Below are positions 9,739 through 18,277 of a stretch of 64,000 nucleotides of DNA, piece after piece; position 1 is the first letter of the stretch, and every line of letters begins with the position of its first letter. Both the position numbers and the translations under genes were made by a program. The DNA is from an uncultured Dehalococcoidia bacterium (GTDB taxonomy: Bacteria; Chloroflexota; Dehalococcoidia; SM23-28-2; RBG-16-64-32). The notes beneath the pieces are model-generated. The model ran no database searches and had not been told where the DNA came from. It saw only the letters and a program-made list of their open reading frames with translations. The DNA lies in assembly GCA_964558415.1 (NCBI GenBank), contig CAZLDI010000016.1, positions 538-64,537 on the forward strand. The letters run 5' to 3'.

Positions 9739-11304
9739 TTATTGACCCTCCGGCGGAGCCAGCGTGTCGGAGAACATCATTTGCGCCAGGGGCGGCACGC
9801 CCATCAGCAATAGTCCGCTCGTTATGAGCGTTAGCCCGCCGAACAGCGCTACCTTGTATGAGTGGCCACCTGATGCCGCCTTCGGTGCGAAGGCATTGAT
9901 CGCTGTAAGAGCAAGGATCACGCCGATTACCATCATCCTGATGAATCCCGTATCAAACGACTGGAACGAAAGCGCGCCCGGTATGCCGATGTCCTCCGGC
10001 CTGATCGTGGAAGCGTTCTCGGTGTTGGCGATCGCCTGCGCTTCCACAAGCTTCACATTGAACGCGCTGACGACTTCGCTCACGAAGACCATCGTGCCGA
10101 TCAGCGCCACGTGCATAGGAATGACCACATAGTTGAATGTCGATGCCACGAGCTTCCGCTTCGCCCTCAACAACCACACTCTCAATGCCATGTCTGAGGA
10201 GAATCGCCCAACCTTCTCAGGCTCGCCGCCCCAGTCGTTGCCATCCCAGAATGCGCGTACGGTCCTGTGCACCAGTTCACTACCCGTCTCCGCCATGAAC
10301 CGGCTCCAGCACAACCCCGTGTTAATACCGCAGGCCACCCGCTTCAGCAGGTTTATCAGCTCTGGCTCCAGGGAACCGATGGCGCGCGCGTCGATGTGAC
10401 CGAGGCTCTCTATCACCGTGCTGCCACGAGCGGCCGTAACACCGCCCAGCGCGCGCAGGAAGTCCGCGATATCGCGGTCCCGAGCGTCTATCTTCTGTTC
10501 GAGGAGGGTCGTGGTGACGCCCACGGGCAGTACGATGATGCCGGCGACGATAAGCGCAAGGCCCATGCTGCCCAGGACGCCAAAGGTGACAAGACCTACC
10601 AGCAGCGCCGTCGGAAGCAGAATCCTTGCCATCTTCGTCATGCGCTTCTGTTCCTCCGACCTGTGTTCCAGCTTGTGGACCACGGGGTCATAGGGAGCTA
10701 TCCGGTAGATCAGGTACGCCCCCATCGCTGCCGCTAAGATCGCCACCAGTTCCACCACAACCATGAACAGCAACCCCAGGTTGTAGATCATGTTGGAGAT
10801 CAGCGCCACGAGGACAATTAGGTTGCAGGACACCATCAACGCCACAAAGGCATCGGTCCATTTGCGTAGCGCCTCTATCGCCCGCTCGTACTCGTTCGTA
10901 TAGTCGTCCATCATTACCTGTGTCTCGCGCGCCAGGAAGACCGTCTCGGGCTCGCCGGAGGCCATTGAGTTACCGAAGCGCAGAAGGAACTGACGCATGA
11001 CCTCGTCCTTTGTCGTCTTTGAGACGACGTGGCACGCGTGAGAGTAGTCGTAGCCCAGGCTCTGGACCAGGTTCGCCACCCGCGCGAAGTACGGTGACGG
11101 CAGGTAACCCAGCTCCGAGGCGCTGTCGAAAATCTGCTCGCGGCTCAGGTTGGCCGTGGAAACGGACGAAAGATACGTCAGGACAGTGAGCAGGTCGAAC
11201 TGGCTCTGGTTCATGTCAAGAAGCATGGAGTTCTTGACGGCAGACAGAGCCGGGGACCGGCCGGAGCCGATGGGGGTACTAGAAGAGTCCTTGTTTCCTG
11301 GCAT
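9739..11304 (-). CDS. flaJ: archaellum membrane platform protein FlaJ-like (double T2SSF/TadC-like domains)
   Basis: 521 aa polytopic membrane protein with two repeated T2SSF-like halves. It sits immediately downstream of a FlaI-like ATPase. An alternative start at 11226 avoids the 26-nt overlap with flaI. Confidence 0.75.
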   Translation of the reverse strand: MPGNKDSSSTPIGSGRSPALSAVKNSMLLDMNQSQFDLLTVLTYLSSVSTANLSREQIFDSASELGYLPSPYFARVANLVQSLGYDYSHACHVVSKTTKDEVMRQFLLRFGNSMASGEPETVFLARETQVMMDDYTNEYERAIEALRKWTDAFVALMVSCNLIVLVALISNMIYNLGLLFMVVVELVAILAAAMGAYLIYRIAPYDPVVHKLEHRSEEQKRMTKMARILLPTALLVGLVTFGVLGSMGLALIVAGIIVLPVGVTTTLLEQKIDARDRDIADFLRALGGVTAARGSTVIESLGHIDARAIGSLEPELINLLKRVACGINTGLCWSRFMAETGSELVHRTVRAFWDGNDWGGEPEKVGRFSSDMALRVWLLRAKRKLVASTFNYVVIPMHVALIGTMVFVSEVVSAFNVKLVEAQAIANTENASTIRPEDIGIPGALSFQSFDTGFIRMMVIGVILALTAINAFAPKAASGGHSYKVALFGGLTLITSGLLLMGVPPLAQMMFSDTLAPPEGQ

Positions 11305-13000
11305 TTCCCAGTACCCTGTACAGTTCGTAGAAGTCAGAGATGTTGGACGATTTGTGTAGCTTCTCCAGCACCTTCGCCCGCCGGTCTATCTCCTGGTAGA
11401 TGCGGCGACGCTGGTTCGGTGGGATTCCGCGCGCCGGTGCCACCTTGTTCTCCAGCAAATAGCTGTTCATGTAACCCGTGAACTCGTGGACATCCGTGAT
11501 TGGGTCCCAGTGGAACGTCTCGGCATACGAGAACGAATCGGTTACGGAGTCGTAGCCGAACAGCTCGTTGATCGAAAGAATTCGCCGCCCCACCTTGCCG
11601 TTCGGCAGCTTGACGGCGCTGGCGATGACCACGAGGTTCAGGTTATCGATGTAGGACTTCGGGACGCTGATCGGTGCAGCCGTCACACGCTGTATCAGCT
11701 TCTCCACCGTAGCCGCGTGGAACGTCGCCATCACAGCATGGCCGGTCTGCATAGCCTGGAACGCGATATTCCCCTCTTCGCCGCGGATCTCACCAACGAT
11801 GATCTCGTTAGGCCGCTGCCGCAGCGCCGCTTTCAACAGGTCGAACATGGTCACGCTGGCCGCTTCGCCGGCCGCTCCACGTACCACTTCTCGTAGCCAG
11901 TTCGGATGCGGGACCTGCACCTCTGGCGTGTCCTCCACCGTCACAATTTTGGCGCCCGCATCAATGAACGTGGTCAGCGCATTGAGCAGCGTCGTCTTGC
12001 CTGATGCCGTCTCTCCGGAGACCCACATGTTCATGCCCTCTTCAATCATGATCGAGAGGTAGGCGATCATCTGGTACGTGCAGGCGCCGCCGGCAACAAC
12101 GTCCATCACGCTCAGGGGCGTCGCGGTGAACTTGCGGATCGTAAAGTTGCTGCCCCGCTTGGAGACCTCTTCGCCGTAGACTATGTTCACGCGCGAACCG
12201 TCCGGCAGGGTTGCGTCGACGATCGGTTTTCGGTAGGTGACCGGCTTGTTGATGCGCTCCGAGGTGCGCCGCAGGAACGCGTCAAGGTCGTCATGCTTGT
12301 CGAAGATGATCGCGGACTTGAGCGCCTTCAGCACCTTGTGCTCGATGAAGACCGGTCCCAGTCCCGCGCAGCTAATGTCCTCAATATTCGGGTCCAGGAT
12401 CAGCGGCTGCAGGATGCCCAGGCCAACCTTGTCTCGCAGCAGCAGATAGCGCACCGCGTCCAGGTCTACCTGCCCCAGCGTCATGCGGGAACCCCGTCGC
12501 GGCTTTTTCCAGCCGCTATCTGCGGGACGCAGGCTCCCATCGCTCCCTACCGTGACTACGCGGTCCAGGGCGTTCAAGAGGACCTCTCGCTGCTCTTCAT
12601 TGTTCTCCGGTTGGTGATACTTGTGCACGGCGTCCACCAACAGCTCTTCGACGATCTCCATGAGCGAGTCGTAGTCGCTGAGGATCGTCGGCTCAATCGG
12701 GATGTAGTAGTTGCGCGCGTCGTGCGCGTCCGCCAGGATGTGCGCAAAGGTAGCGTTGCCAACTGGATAGATGAGGTTCGGGGACTCGTTCGCCCCCGCC
12801 TTCCGGTCCAGCTTTGCGTGGTATTCCGGCGAACCCGTCTCGGCCACTGGAAGCGTGTGCAGGTAACGTCGCAGGTGCGCGTGCTCATCAACCAGTTCAC
12901 GCAGCTCAGCGGGAAGCGGCCCGCAGACGGCGCAGCTCGAGGAGACATGCGAGCCGTCCGACCAACCGATGTCCGGGAAGGGTAACGCAACGTACGGCAT
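11279..13000 (-). CDS. flaI: archaellum ATPase FlaI-like (type II/IV secretion ATPase superfamily)
   Basis: 573 aa with Walker A GETASGKTTLLNAL, Walker B/Asp box IIVGEIRGEE and His box TGHAVMATFHA. Length and N-terminal domain fit archaeal FlaI rather than the shorter bacterial CpaF/TadA. Confidence 0.85.
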   Translation of the reverse strand: MPYVALPFPDIGWSDGSHVSSSCAVCGPLPAELRELVDEHAHLRRYLHTLPVAETGSPEYHAKLDRKAGANESPNLIYPVGNATFAHILADAHDARNYYIPIEPTILSDYDSLMEIVEELLVDAVHKYHQPENNEEQREVLLNALDRVVTVGSDGSLRPADSGWKKPRRGSRMTLGQVDLDAVRYLLLRDKVGLGILQPLILDPNIEDISCAGLGPVFIEHKVLKALKSAIIFDKHDDLDAFLRRTSERINKPVTYRKPIVDATLPDGSRVNIVYGEEVSKRGSNFTIRKFTATPLSVMDVVAGGACTYQMIAYLSIMIEEGMNMWVSGETASGKTTLLNALTTFIDAGAKIVTVEDTPEVQVPHPNWLREVVRGAAGEAASVTMFDLLKAALRQRPNEIIVGEIRGEEGNIAFQAMQTGHAVMATFHAATVEKLIQRVTAAPISVPKSYIDNLNLVVIASAVKLPNGKVGRRILSINELFGYDSVTDSFSYAETFHWDPITDVHEFTGYMNSYLLENKVAPARGIPPNQRRRIYQEIDRRAKVLEKLHKSSNISDFYELYRVLGNARKQGLF

Positions 13001-13007
13001 CTCTGCA

Positions 13008-17654: not shown

Positions 17655-17686
17655 GTATTACCCCCTCTCGCCTGTGAGCGAGTGAA

Positions 17687-18277
17687 CTAATGCAGATCCA
17701 TTACTGTGTCGATCTCCGGCGGCAGCGTGCGCATGATCAGCAGCGTGCCACCCTGCGGAGGAACGACTTCCAGTGTGAAGATCTCGTTGGGTGCCAGGGT
17801 GGACGTACCCGGCGGGGAAACGTTGACCTCGAAGAGTTCGCCGTTCTCCAACAGGTTGTCGCCATCGCCCTGGATCTCCGTGACGGTGTACGTGGCATCA
17901 GCCACGCGCGCCTGTGCGTCGATGTAGTTCATGACCACCGAGTTCGTGGTGGCAGCCGGGTCCACTAAGACCGGGAAACCGCCGGCGGCGTTGGCCAGGT
18001 TAAACTCGATGTTGTCCGCGGCCGTGATCGTGCCACTCGCGTCCGTGTCTGTGATCGTCAGCGCGCCTCGGACCTCCAGGTTGCCCCGCGCCTTCTCCAG
18101 ACCGGCGAAGACAGTCTCCTTGCCTCGCTCGGCGCTGAACAGACCGGTGCTGAGCACCACGAAGGCGAACACCGAAGCGACAATCACGAAAGCAATGAGG
18201 ATGATCGCGGTCTCCAGACCGGTGATACCCTCTTCTCTCTTGTGCAGGCTGCCAAGCAGCCGCGTGATCTTGCGCAT
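17687..18277 (-). CDS. flaB: archaellin, paralog 1 (first gene of operon)
   Basis: 196 aa. A strong SD (AAGGAGG) precedes the ATG, and a 660 bp AT-richer leader/promoter region lies upstream. Confidence 0.85.
   Translation of the reverse strand: [196 protein letters not shown]

Follow-up and report, generated by a model that had tools for sequence, protein, structure and literature searches.

Archaellum gene clusters are an established feature of the Chloroflexota, where they have been found in 243 of 3,780 genomes and attributed to horizontal gene transfer from Methanotecta (PMC12488501). A cryoEM structure and swimming were reported in 2025 for the archaellum of Litorilinea aerophila, which belongs to the Caldilineales (Sivabalasarma et al.; PDB 9SIE/9SII; PMC12488501), and SAR202 isolates with archaellum clusters of the form flaB x6 followed by flaGFHIJ, among them 'Ca. 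Lucifugimonas marina', were described in 2023 (Lim et al.; PMC10444878). The arl2 cluster type is defined by a distant arlD/E gene and a reversed F/G order (PMC10117864). We are confident that the 64-kb stretch of DNA analysed here (the window) carries a complete, anciently acquired archaellum cluster of the arl2 type. Since the system was described and shown to function in Chloroflexota between 2023 and 2025, the window cluster is a further example and not a discovery. A preliminary description of the window had correctly stated that such loci were on record in this phylum (PMC10444878, PMC12488501); its statement that they are rare goes too far in view of the genome count above, and their function has been demonstrated experimentally (PMC12488501).

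The cluster comprises ten co-oriented ORFs at exactly the positions first proposed for them, and profile-HMM searches with their products identified four ArlB proteins, an ArlD/E-like protein, ArlG, ArlF, ArlH, ArlI, and ArlJ (Table 1). The two stator genes had been named in the order flaF, flaG; NCBIfam and PDB profiles place ArlG first and ArlF second, and the resulting gene order is the arl2 layout, as opposed to the F-G order of the Methanococcus type. The arlJ and arlI genes overlap by 26 nt, with the overlapping start kept in the related locus L001. No promoter or terminator was recognised for the cluster.

Table 1 Features of the archaellum locus in window coordinates.
Feature	Coordinates	Strand	Evidence
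arlB1, archaellin, 196 aa	17687..18277	-	Pfam Arch_flagellin, TIGR02537, PDB match
arlB2, archaellin paralogue, 196 aa	17064..17654	-	Pfam Arch_flagellin
arlB3, archaellin paralogue, 196 aa	16436..17026	-	Pfam Arch_flagellin
arlB4, archaellin paralogue, 196 aa	15812..16402	-	Pfam Arch_flagellin
ArlD/E-like soluble coiled-coil protein, 245 aa	14999..15736	-	Profile-profile comparison
arlG, stator protein with N-terminal TM helix, 167 aa	14454..14957	-	NCBIfam and PDB profile
arlF, stator protein with N-terminal TM helix, 167 aa	13941..14444	-	NCBIfam and PDB profile
arlH, KaiC/RecA-like ATP-binding protein, 304 aa	13008..13922	-	NCBIfam PRK06067 and PDB
arlI, motor/assembly ATPase, 573 aa	11279..13000	-	NCBIfam NF058587 and PDB
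arlJ, polytopic membrane platform protein, 521 aa	9739..11304	-	NCBIfam NF004703
Probable eleventh operon gene, LysM-LysM-M23	7707..9731	-	Pfam M23/LysM, motif HMMs
Small ORF, 73-86 aa, one hydrophobic helix, system membership uncertain	18541..18801	-	Position, GC3

The window shares with L. aerophila a bacterial host, the arl2 type, an arlCDE-like gene, and the arlG-arlF order. It differs in the class of the host, its nearest relatives being Dehalococcoidia MAGs, and in having four tandem arlB genes. 'Ca. Lucifugimonas marina' is likewise a member of the Dehalococcoidia with tandem flaB genes preceding flaGFHIJ; compared by its published description, it has six tandem and six scattered flaB genes against four in the window, and that description names neither a D/E-like gene nor a gene after flaJ, both of which are present here (PMC10444878). 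Among archaea, the arl2 clusters of Methanotecta (Archaeoglobi, Methanosarcinales, and ANME-1/Methanophagales) have an identical gene order that includes the distant ArlD/E-like gene and a post-arlJ gene with an acidic motif. The Sulfolobus acidocaldarius cluster (arlB-X-G-F-H-I-J) has the same G-F-H-I-J order, with ArlX in place of the ArlD/E-like protein and a single archaellin (PMC10117864); for the corresponding window proteins, the solved FlaI, FlaH, FlaF, and FlaG structures are either the best PDB match or the only one.

The product of arlB1 scored 79.7 bits against Pfam Arch_flagellin (cut-off 29.5) and matched the TIGR02537 N-terminal domain; the scores for arlB2, arlB3, and arlB4 were 73.6, 75.2, and 77 bits. 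Upstream of arlB1 is a strong Shine-Dalgarno sequence, AAAGGAGGA, and the gene encodes a class III signal peptide whose cleavage is predicted at G17|I18, with Glu at +5. The best PDB match is the L. aerophila archaellum (9i5h/9sie/9sii; E=4.8e-40), in which the archaellin chain begins at the residue aligning with I18; Ile after Gly is the mature N-terminus there and the predicted one here. Of the four metal ligands of the L. aerophila protein, D127, E131, and E134 are conserved, whereas D121 falls in a 5-residue deletion in the window archaellin. The four genes form a tandem repeat with a period of 623-628 nt; arlB2 shares 87-88% identity with each of the others, and dN/dS among the copies is 0.07-0.25 at a dS of 0.36-0.76. 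The N-terminus quoted in the preliminary description is present in the translations, with copy 4 reading KKEEG rather than KREEG. That description had drawn its comparison with Methanococcus; Archaeoglobi, Methanosarcinales, and ANME-1 are better comparators, as they share the layout and very similar archaellin N- and C-termini, which are near-identical (KGFTGLEAAIVLIAFVVVAAVFSY ... IDxVMxLx) in Archaeoglobi, Methanosarcina, and ANME-1 loci.

ArlI scored 653.7 bits with the FlaI equivalog model NF058587 (cut-off 550), whereas TadA reached 155 bits and BasE, the bindosome ATPase, 166, and its PDB comparison gave 419 bits for FlaI 4II7 and 144 for CpaF. ArlH matched FlaH (PRK06067) at 220.5 bits, above the subfamily cut-off of 194, with 4YDS as the best PDB entry (E=4.6e-25), and carries an acidic N-terminal extension of ~70 aa. 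ArlJ, with at least six hydrophobic segments, matched the ArlJ/FlaJ model NF004703 at 433 bits (E=1e-129), below the equivalog cut-off of 570. The motifs previously read from these proteins are intact: the Walker A sequences GDPEAGKS (ArlH aa 104-111) and GETASGKTT (ArlI aa 329-337), and IIVGEIRGEE (ArlI aa 400-409). The best NCBIfam models for the two stator proteins, ArlG (33 bits) and ArlF (21.7 bits), were both matched below the equivalog cut-offs. In family-profile comparisons, arlG (TM helix aa 4-22) matched the soluble domain of S. acidocaldarius FlaG (5TUG/6PBK; E=2e-12) and arlF matched FlaF 4P94 at E=4.2e-10 versus E=5e-4 for FlaG. Neither Pfam nor NCBIfam gave a direct match for the ArlD/E-like protein, and a search for a TM helix in it found none. 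When a profile of its Chloroflexota orthologues was compared with the archaeal positional homologues, which themselves have sub-threshold Arch_fla_DE matches, hhalign returned a probability of 96.5% (E=7.6e-10) for an alignment that covers the N-terminal LExE(I/L)KxLKxE(I/V)xxxLLD(I/L)RE motif as well as the C-terminal domain. By this alignment, the gene is orthologous to the distant ArlD/E-like gene that euryarchaeal arl2 clusters carry in the ArlCDE/ArlX position.

These assignments make it highly improbable that the locus is a bacterial Tad/Flp system or another type IV filament system misread as an archaellum, or a non-rotating adhesion pilus or bindosome of archaeal type. The bacterial Tad pilus, itself the product of a type IV filament machine's earlier passage from archaea to bacteria, has a related ATPase and platform: ArlI and ArlJ share superfamilies with CpaF/TadA and TadB/C, Pfam alone returns only T2SSE and a sub-threshold T2SSF, and the Glu at +5 of the mature archaellin is as in bacterial pilins. 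However, the FlaI scores far exceed those of the Tad and bindosome ATPases, the filament genes encode Arch_flagellin domains matching a solved bacterial archaellum, and the locus includes every one of the archaellum-specific components ArlH, ArlF, ArlG, and ArlD/E-like protein; Tad systems lack ArlH, ArlF, ArlG, and ArlCDE, use Flp pilins, and are not rotary propellers.

The closest relatives of the window ArlI are from Chloroflexota/Dehalococcoidia MAGs (80-85% identity), and the closest archaeal sequences, from Archaeoglobi, Methanosarcinales, and ANME-1, are ~48-53% identical. A neighbour-joining tree puts the window ArlI inside a Chloroflexota subclade and gathers all 42 archaeal sequences into a single cluster. 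The flanking genes are bacterial as initially described, and the cluster occurs with the same neighbours (MMPL upstream; LysM-M23, MFS, and the MoxR/DUF58/transglutaminase triad downstream) in at least five independent assemblies of Chloroflexota/Dehalococcoidia MAGs, in one of them on a 2.78-Mb contig. Composition had been said to match the rest of the window, which holds for GC3 (0.76-0.85 versus ~0.78-0.92); overall GC is slightly lower (59-62% versus mostly 63-68%). A segment of archaeal DNA that mis-assembly or mis-binning had attached to a bacterial contig could account for the 3-5 point GC deficit relative to the flanks, and public contigs labelled 'Acidobacteriota' (L006) and 'Fermentibacteria' (L035) that carry such clusters do look mis-binned. 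This explanation is nevertheless very improbable given the recurrent bacterial neighbours, the host-like GC3, a closest archaeal ArlI only ~52% identical, and the fusion of the last operon gene to bacterial LysM and M23 peptidoglycan domains. Every cluster gene is under purifying selection (dN/dS 0.07-0.34); together with the synteny and GC3 this identifies an old, maintained, host-adapted horizontal acquisition rather than a chimera, as originally proposed. The cluster belongs to the clade of archaellum clusters that was taken up from a Methanotecta-like euryarchaeon by an ancestor of Dehalococcoidia/Anaerolineae (Chloroflexota).

By homology with characterised archaella we infer that the window's archaellum assembles and rotates a filament. 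Pre-archaellins would be cut after Gly17 by a class III signal peptidase whose gene lies elsewhere; the ArlJ platform and the hexameric ArlI ATPase, modulated by ArlH, would build the ArlB filament and then turn it at the expense of ATP, with ArlF and ArlG as a membrane-anchored stator and the ArlD/E-like protein as a putative cytoplasmic ring or switch scaffold. The cluster probably drives swimming in the source organism, in keeping with the intact catalytic motifs, the purifying selection acting on all genes, the four old archaellin paralogues among them, and the swimming demonstrated in a member of the same clade (PMC12488501). It is unlikely, in view of these observations, that the cluster is maintained for another role such as adhesion, or is rarely or never expressed in this lineage. 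That possibility draws on the cultivated SAR202 cells, in which no archaella were seen by microscopy despite similar clusters, so that expression may be conditional or absent (PMC10444878); on L. aerophila, which forms archaella on semi-solid medium only (PMC12488501); and on the 64-kb window, within which neither che genes nor a class III signal peptidase gene was found. 'Ca. Lucifugimonas marina' likewise encodes its peptidase outside the archaellum cluster (PMC10444878).

An eleventh gene very probably belongs to the operon; it starts 7 nt past the arlJ stop on the same strand. The N-terminal region of its product is cytoplasmic and carries a conserved acidic motif of ~50 aa (aa 123-171; window 9219-9365). 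A TM helix (aa 335-354) follows, then two LysM domains (aa 430-474 and 481-526; 32.2 bits) and an M23 metallopeptidase domain (85.5 bits) whose HxxxD (aa 573-577) and HxH (aa 655-657) motifs are intact; the dN/dS of the gene is 0.22-0.25. HMMs of the acidic motif matched no ORF other than the one immediately following arlJ, which they found in 29 of the 31 Chloroflexota loci that could be assessed and in all 42 archaeal arl2 loci, and the Chloroflexota and archaeal profiles aligned with an hhalign probability of 91.4% (E=9e-7; reversed control 0.8%). The LysM/M23 fusion is common to L001, L002, L003, and L005, with LysM-only forms in L009 and L014. Such M23/LysM hydrolases are common housekeeping enzymes, and most post-arlJ family members lack any ectodomain, both of which would suit an unrelated cell-wall hydrolase adjacent by chance. 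We consider this coincidence unlikely, given the short same-strand gap, the restriction of the motif to the post-arlJ position in both domains, and the retention of the fusion among related loci.

As part of the operon, the co-transcribed gene would encode an ancestral arl2 accessory protein whose acidic motif, in the cytoplasm, presumably serves for docking on the motor. Neither LysM nor M23 occurs in the archaeal post-arlJ proteins, and their Methanotecta hosts have no murein. The window host makes peptidoglycan, as shown by a D-Ala-D-Ala carboxypeptidase encoded within the window. In the window's subclade the protein has gained a LysM-LysM-M23 ectodomain, and the fusion of the motif to a TM helix, two LysM domains, and an M23 peptidase suggests a peptidoglycan-anchoring or peptidoglycan-cutting adaptation; binding and local cutting of peptidoglycan might let the archaeal machine anchor in, and cross, the bacterial wall. 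We propose this wall role tentatively, at somewhat less than even likelihood, from position, conservation, and domain content. In L. aerophila, PilN and PilO-LysM genes lie nearby; here, LysM and M23 domains are fused to the post-arlJ gene. The acidic motif and its LysM/M23 fusion are possibly the sole new point of the locus, and lie outside the ten-gene finding. At the other end of the cluster, the 660-nt region upstream of arlB1 contains a small ORF with a GC3 of 0.78, which has a counterpart in the same place in L001 only (44% identity over 66 aa).

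All ten open reading frames (ORFs) that the preliminary description had assigned to an archaellum cluster were present in the ORF list of the window, on the minus strand and at exactly the coordinates claimed, and the peptide motifs it had quoted were found in the translations. The archaellum identity of the cluster was upheld by profile or solved-structure matches of its components, among them matches to FlaH, FlaI and ArlJ/FlaJ models for the three genes so labeled (arlH, arlI and arlJ in the nomenclature used here). ArlI, in which both the Walker A and the Walker B motif are present, scored 653.7 bits on the NCBIfam FlaI equivalog NF058587 (cut-off 550), compared with 166 bits on the bindosome ATPase model and 155 bits on the TadA model (cut-off 373); against solved structures, it matched S. 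acidocaldarius FlaI (PDB 4II7) with 419 bits and CpaF with 144 bits. On these scores we rejected a bindosome and, since the filament genes are archaellins, also a Tad/Flp pilus; a T4P reading of the cluster was likewise considered and rejected. ArlH scored 220.5 bits on the FlaH subfamily model PRK06067 (cut-off 194), with FlaH 4YDS as its top PDB match. ArlJ, which contains several hydrophobic segments, matched NF004703 (ArlJ/FlaJ) over amino acids 32-512 with E=1e-129 and 433 bits, a score under the strict equivalog cut-off of 570. Residues 1-70 of ArlH (window 13713-13922, minus strand) form an acidic, Pro/Ala-rich N-terminal extension of ~70 aa that is missing in the solved FlaH proteins and unaligned in the orthologues from L001 and L002, two related loci in other assemblies.

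Genes of the archaellum cluster and the gene that follows arlJ, with window coordinates
Gene	Length (aa)	Coordinates	Strand	Source or remark
arlB1 (archaellin)	196	17687-18277	-	ORF list
arlB2 (archaellin)	196	17064-17654	-	ORF list
arlB3 (archaellin)	196	16436-17026	-	ORF list
arlB4 (archaellin)	196	15812-16402	-	ORF list
D/E-like gene	245	14999-15736	-	ORF list
arlG	167	14454-14957	-	ORF list and family profile
arlF	167	13941-14444	-	ORF list and family profile
arlH	304	13008-13922	-	ORF list
arlI	573	11279-13000	-	ORF list
arlJ	521	9739-11304	-	ORF list
post-arlJ gene	674	7707-9731	-	begins 7 nt past the stop of arlJ

Each of the four archaellins scored 74-80 bits on Pfam Arch_flagellin (cut-off 29.5) and also matched the archaellin/pilin N-terminal model TIGR02537. 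Their genes are repeated in tandem with a period of 623-628 nt and encode proteins that are 87-92% identical. The top solved-structure match of ArlB1, over its full length (E=4.8e-40), is a chain common to 9i5h, 9sie and 9sii; 9SIE and 9SII are the bacterial archaellum of Litorilinea aerophila. In the structure, the L. aerophila ArlB chain starts at an Ile that aligns with I18 of the window protein, which supports the class III signal peptide and the cleavage site proposed from the sequence. The L. aerophila metal ligands D127, E131 and E134 are kept in the window as D140, E144 and E147 (three of four), whereas the fourth, D121, falls within a five-residue deletion. Among the four paralogues, dN/dS was 0.07-0.25 and dS 0.36-0.76; the copies are old and maintained. 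The 36-nt spacer between arlB1 and arlB2 (window 17655-17690, minus strand) folds into a hairpin of -10.9 kcal/mol (z=-3.8 relative to shuffled sequences) that partly sequesters the Shine-Dalgarno region of arlB2; it is the only arlB spacer to fold unusually well. In the spacer between arlB4 and the D/E-like gene, the hairpin 3' of arlB4 was no better than in shuffles (z=-1.1) and had no U-tract. Sigma-70 promoters and intrinsic terminators were no commoner in 7400-19200 than in shuffled sequence, and no site lay at a useful position; Rfam and tRNA scans of the window gave no matches.

The order of the next genes proved to be the reverse of the flaF-then-flaG order first described. Single-sequence matches of the two 167-aa proteins were weak and below cut-off, pointing to ArlG for the first and ArlF for the second. 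When family alignments made from related loci were searched against solved structures, the profile of the first matched the FlaG soluble domain (5TUG/6PBK) with E=2e-12, and that of the second matched FlaF (4P94) with E=4e-10 and FlaG with just E=5e-4; the order is thus arlG-arlF. Both proteins have a single N-terminal transmembrane (TM) helix. Because the 245-aa protein upstream had no Pfam or NCBIfam match even at E<=1, it was analyzed by profile-profile comparison. A profile of its Chloroflexota orthologues aligned with the archaeal positional homologues across both N- and C-terminal domains (hhalign probability 96.5%, E=7.6e-10), and an N-terminal coiled-coil motif, LExE(I/L)KxLKxE(I/V)xxxLLD(I/L)RExxxxxxNP(F/L), is common to the gene at this position in more than 60 loci. 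The archaeal homologues themselves reached 15-19 bits on Arch_fla_DE, below its cut-off of 21. The earlier FlaD/E-like label is therefore supported as orthology to the archaeal gene, a gene described in the literature as "distantly related to arlD/E" (PMC10117864). An arl2 cluster is defined by arlG lying ahead of arlF and by ArlX, or a distant ArlD/E, instead of separate arlC, arlD and arlE (PMC10117864). With its arlG-arlF order and single D/E-like gene, the window cluster is of the arl2 type and not of the Methanococcus-type arl1.

The closest relatives of ArlI, in a scan covering one genome per GTDB species, were from Chloroflexota/Dehalococcoidia MAGs, the loci L001-L005, at 85, 84, 82, 80 and 80% identity; an exact-sequence lookup in a large protein collection returned no identical record. 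The closest archaeal proteins, at ~48-53% identity, came from Methanophagales, Methanosarcina and Archaeoglobi, and these, along with the arl2 layout, displace Methanococcus as the comparator used in the preliminary description. In a crude neighbor-joining tree of 81 ArlI sequences, midpoint-rooted and built with neither outgroup nor support values, the window grouped with L001, L002, L003, L005 and L004, and all 42 archaeal sequences fell in one cluster. The archaeal loci share the gene order and have closely similar archaellin termini, which agrees with the published transfer of the archaellum from Methanotecta to an ancestor of Dehalococcoidia and Anaerolineae (Sivabalasarma et al. 2025, PMC12488501). 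The cluster in the window belongs to the Chloroflexota archaellum clade, its nearest archaea are Methanotecta, and its flanks are bacterial.

That the neighbors are bacterial had been noted from the sequence, and the same flanking genes surround the cluster in independent assemblies: the upstream MMPL gene in L001, L003 and L011, the downstream LysM/M23 gene in L001-L005, followed by the MFS gene in L002, and the downstream MoxR-DUF58-transglutaminase triad in L003, on a 2.78-Mb contig. Elsewhere in the window are a gene for a D-Ala-D-Ala carboxypeptidase and numerous catabolic paralogues of the kind typical for this group. The claim that GC resembles the rest of the window held for GC3 (0.76-0.85 in the arl genes, equal to neighboring genes) but not for total GC, which is 3-5 points below that of the flanks. 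For every gene, dN/dS relative to the L001 and L002 orthologues was 0.09-0.34, values that are approximate because dS is near saturation. A chimeric or mis-assembled contig was rejected on the conserved flanks and host-like GC3, and with purifying dN/dS the view of an acquired and host-adapted locus stands: the cluster is neither a chimera nor decaying.

Archaellum clusters in Chloroflexota are a known class, as the preliminary description had noted. Lim et al. 2023 (PMC10444878) found, in SAR202 Dehalococcoidia grown in culture, six flaB genes ahead of flaGFHIJ and cited an earlier report from a Chloroflexota MAG. In the survey of Sivabalasarma et al. 2025 (PMC12488501), 243 of 3,780 Chloroflexota genomes had an archaellum cluster, a frequency at odds with the rarity first supposed; these authors noted both its arlCDE-like gene and its arlGF order. 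They also determined the structure of the L. aerophila filament at 2.7 Å and showed swimming, the only case among bacterial archaella in which a rotating filament has been demonstrated to drive it (PMC12488501). The archaellum in Bacteria is among the clearest transfers of a whole machine between domains, and its structural and functional case has already been made. The window holds a further locus of this class; among the genomes scanned, the nearest species to its lineage reaches 85% ArlI identity, and the cluster itself is of moderate-to-low interest. Its value is that of a well-preserved example and of a comparison that exposes the post-arlJ gene, the part most worth following up.

The post-arlJ protein has a cytoplasmic N-terminal region and a single TM helix (aa 335-354), followed by a pair of LysM domains and an M23 peptidase whose HxxxD and HxH motifs are intact. 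Its N-terminal region contains an acidic motif of ~50 aa, DLLDLFRDAKEExxEGSLASEVEDIPIAELLGDVxxIGRRLG (window 9219-9365). An HMM of this motif matched nothing but the same-strand ORF directly after arlJ; of the 31 Chloroflexota loci with enough downstream sequence, 29 gave this match. A motif specific to Chloroflexota was rejected, since archaeal loci carry one at the same position: inspection revealed an acidic protein with a similar C-terminal motif after arlJ, and an HMM built from it matched the post-arlJ position in 42 of 42 archaeal loci. Its sole other match was at the same position in L035, on a bacterial-labeled contig that groups with Methanosarcinales. The Chloroflexota and archaeal motif profiles aligned with an hhalign probability of 91.4% (E=9e-7), compared with 0.8% for a reversed control. 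The ectodomain varies by lineage, with LysM and M23 domains in the window, L001, L002, L003 and L005 and LysM domains only in L009 and L014; it is missing in most other loci. In a word-indexed search, the single-sequence motif gave no matches and the motif alignment gave just 10 short unannotated proteins, one of which, P0001, sits after a fragmented archaellum cluster, and another, P0010, does not. Neither the gene nor any M23 hydrolase is mentioned in the published archaellum papers examined. In both domains, arl2 clusters have a conserved and apparently undescribed gene at this position.

By homology, pre-ArlB would be cut after G17 by an unlinked A24 peptidase, ArlJ, ArlI and ArlH would build the filament and, once it is assembled, drive its rotation with ATP, ArlF and ArlG would form the stator, and the ArlD/E-like protein would serve as a cytoplasmic scaffold. 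The post-arlJ protein may be an ancestral arl2 accessory whose cytoplasmic motif docks on the motor, and its fusion to peptidoglycan-binding and -cleaving domains in the subclade of the window may be an adaptation to the murein wall. The motif core, (D/E)(V/I)(D/E)(I/V)xx(L/I)L, resembles the CheY-binding EIDALL peptide of FliM and, still more speculatively, could be the missing CheF-independent link to chemotaxis. We tentatively propose, with somewhat less than even confidence, that the post-arlJ gene encodes an unrecognised eighth conserved component of the arl2 archaella of Methanotecta and Chloroflexota, made into a wall module in this Dehalococcoidia-related subclade by fusion to a TM helix, a pair of LysM domains and an M23 endopeptidase that looks active. 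If so, the wall module would explain both anchoring and passage through peptidoglycan in archaellated Chloroflexota that lack PilN/PilO, whose means of anchoring the archaellum is left open in the literature (PMC13319060), and the gene would offer a way to test how an archaeal motor was adapted to a murein wall.

No A24/class III signal peptidase (FlaK/PibD/PilD) and no che genes were found among the scanned genes of the window; the peptidase usually lies outside the archaellum locus (Sivabalasarma et al. 2025, PMC12488501). In contrast to that statement, an A24 peptidase gene lies directly 3' of the post-arlJ gene in some Dehalococcoidales loci, namely L023:8931-9389 (plus strand; Pfam Peptidase_A24, 53.7 bits), inside the archaellum locus, and a similar gene recognised by eye at L033:~10475-10966. 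In L041, the ORF directly after the post-arlJ gene (~12903-15032, plus strand) begins with an apparent CheA Hpt domain (…LNEIFRAAHTLKGSSAMVG…), also recognised by eye; this neighbor hints at a link between the post-arlJ gene and chemotaxis.

Archaellum clusters also occurred on short contigs that binning had assigned to "Acidobacteriota" (L006) and "Fermentibacteria" (L035). L006 lies inside Chloroflexota and L035 inside Methanosarcinales in the ArlI tree, and both are probably mis-binned contigs rather than further archaellated bacterial phyla. In the window, the 660-nt gap between arlB1 and the divergent MMPL gene holds a small ORF (18541-18801, minus strand; 73-86 aa) with one hydrophobic helix and a possible AxA signal-peptide cleavage site; its only counterpart, in the same place in L001, shares 44% identity across 66 aa. 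Adjoining the MMPL gene, at 21780-24380 (plus strand), are consecutive genes for a C5 cytosine DNA methylase, an EcoO109I-like restriction endonuclease and an HhH-GPD glycosylase, whose GC3 of 0.63-0.67 is clearly under the ~0.8 of the remaining window; the three probably form a restriction-modification island that was acquired recently. Farther along, 25870-62000 encodes two luciferase-like monooxygenases, three acyl-CoA dehydrogenases, four thiolase-like proteins, a P450, a CoA-transferase and an acyl-CoA synthetase, a catabolic set that resembles the paralogue expansions of SAR202-type Dehalococcoidia.
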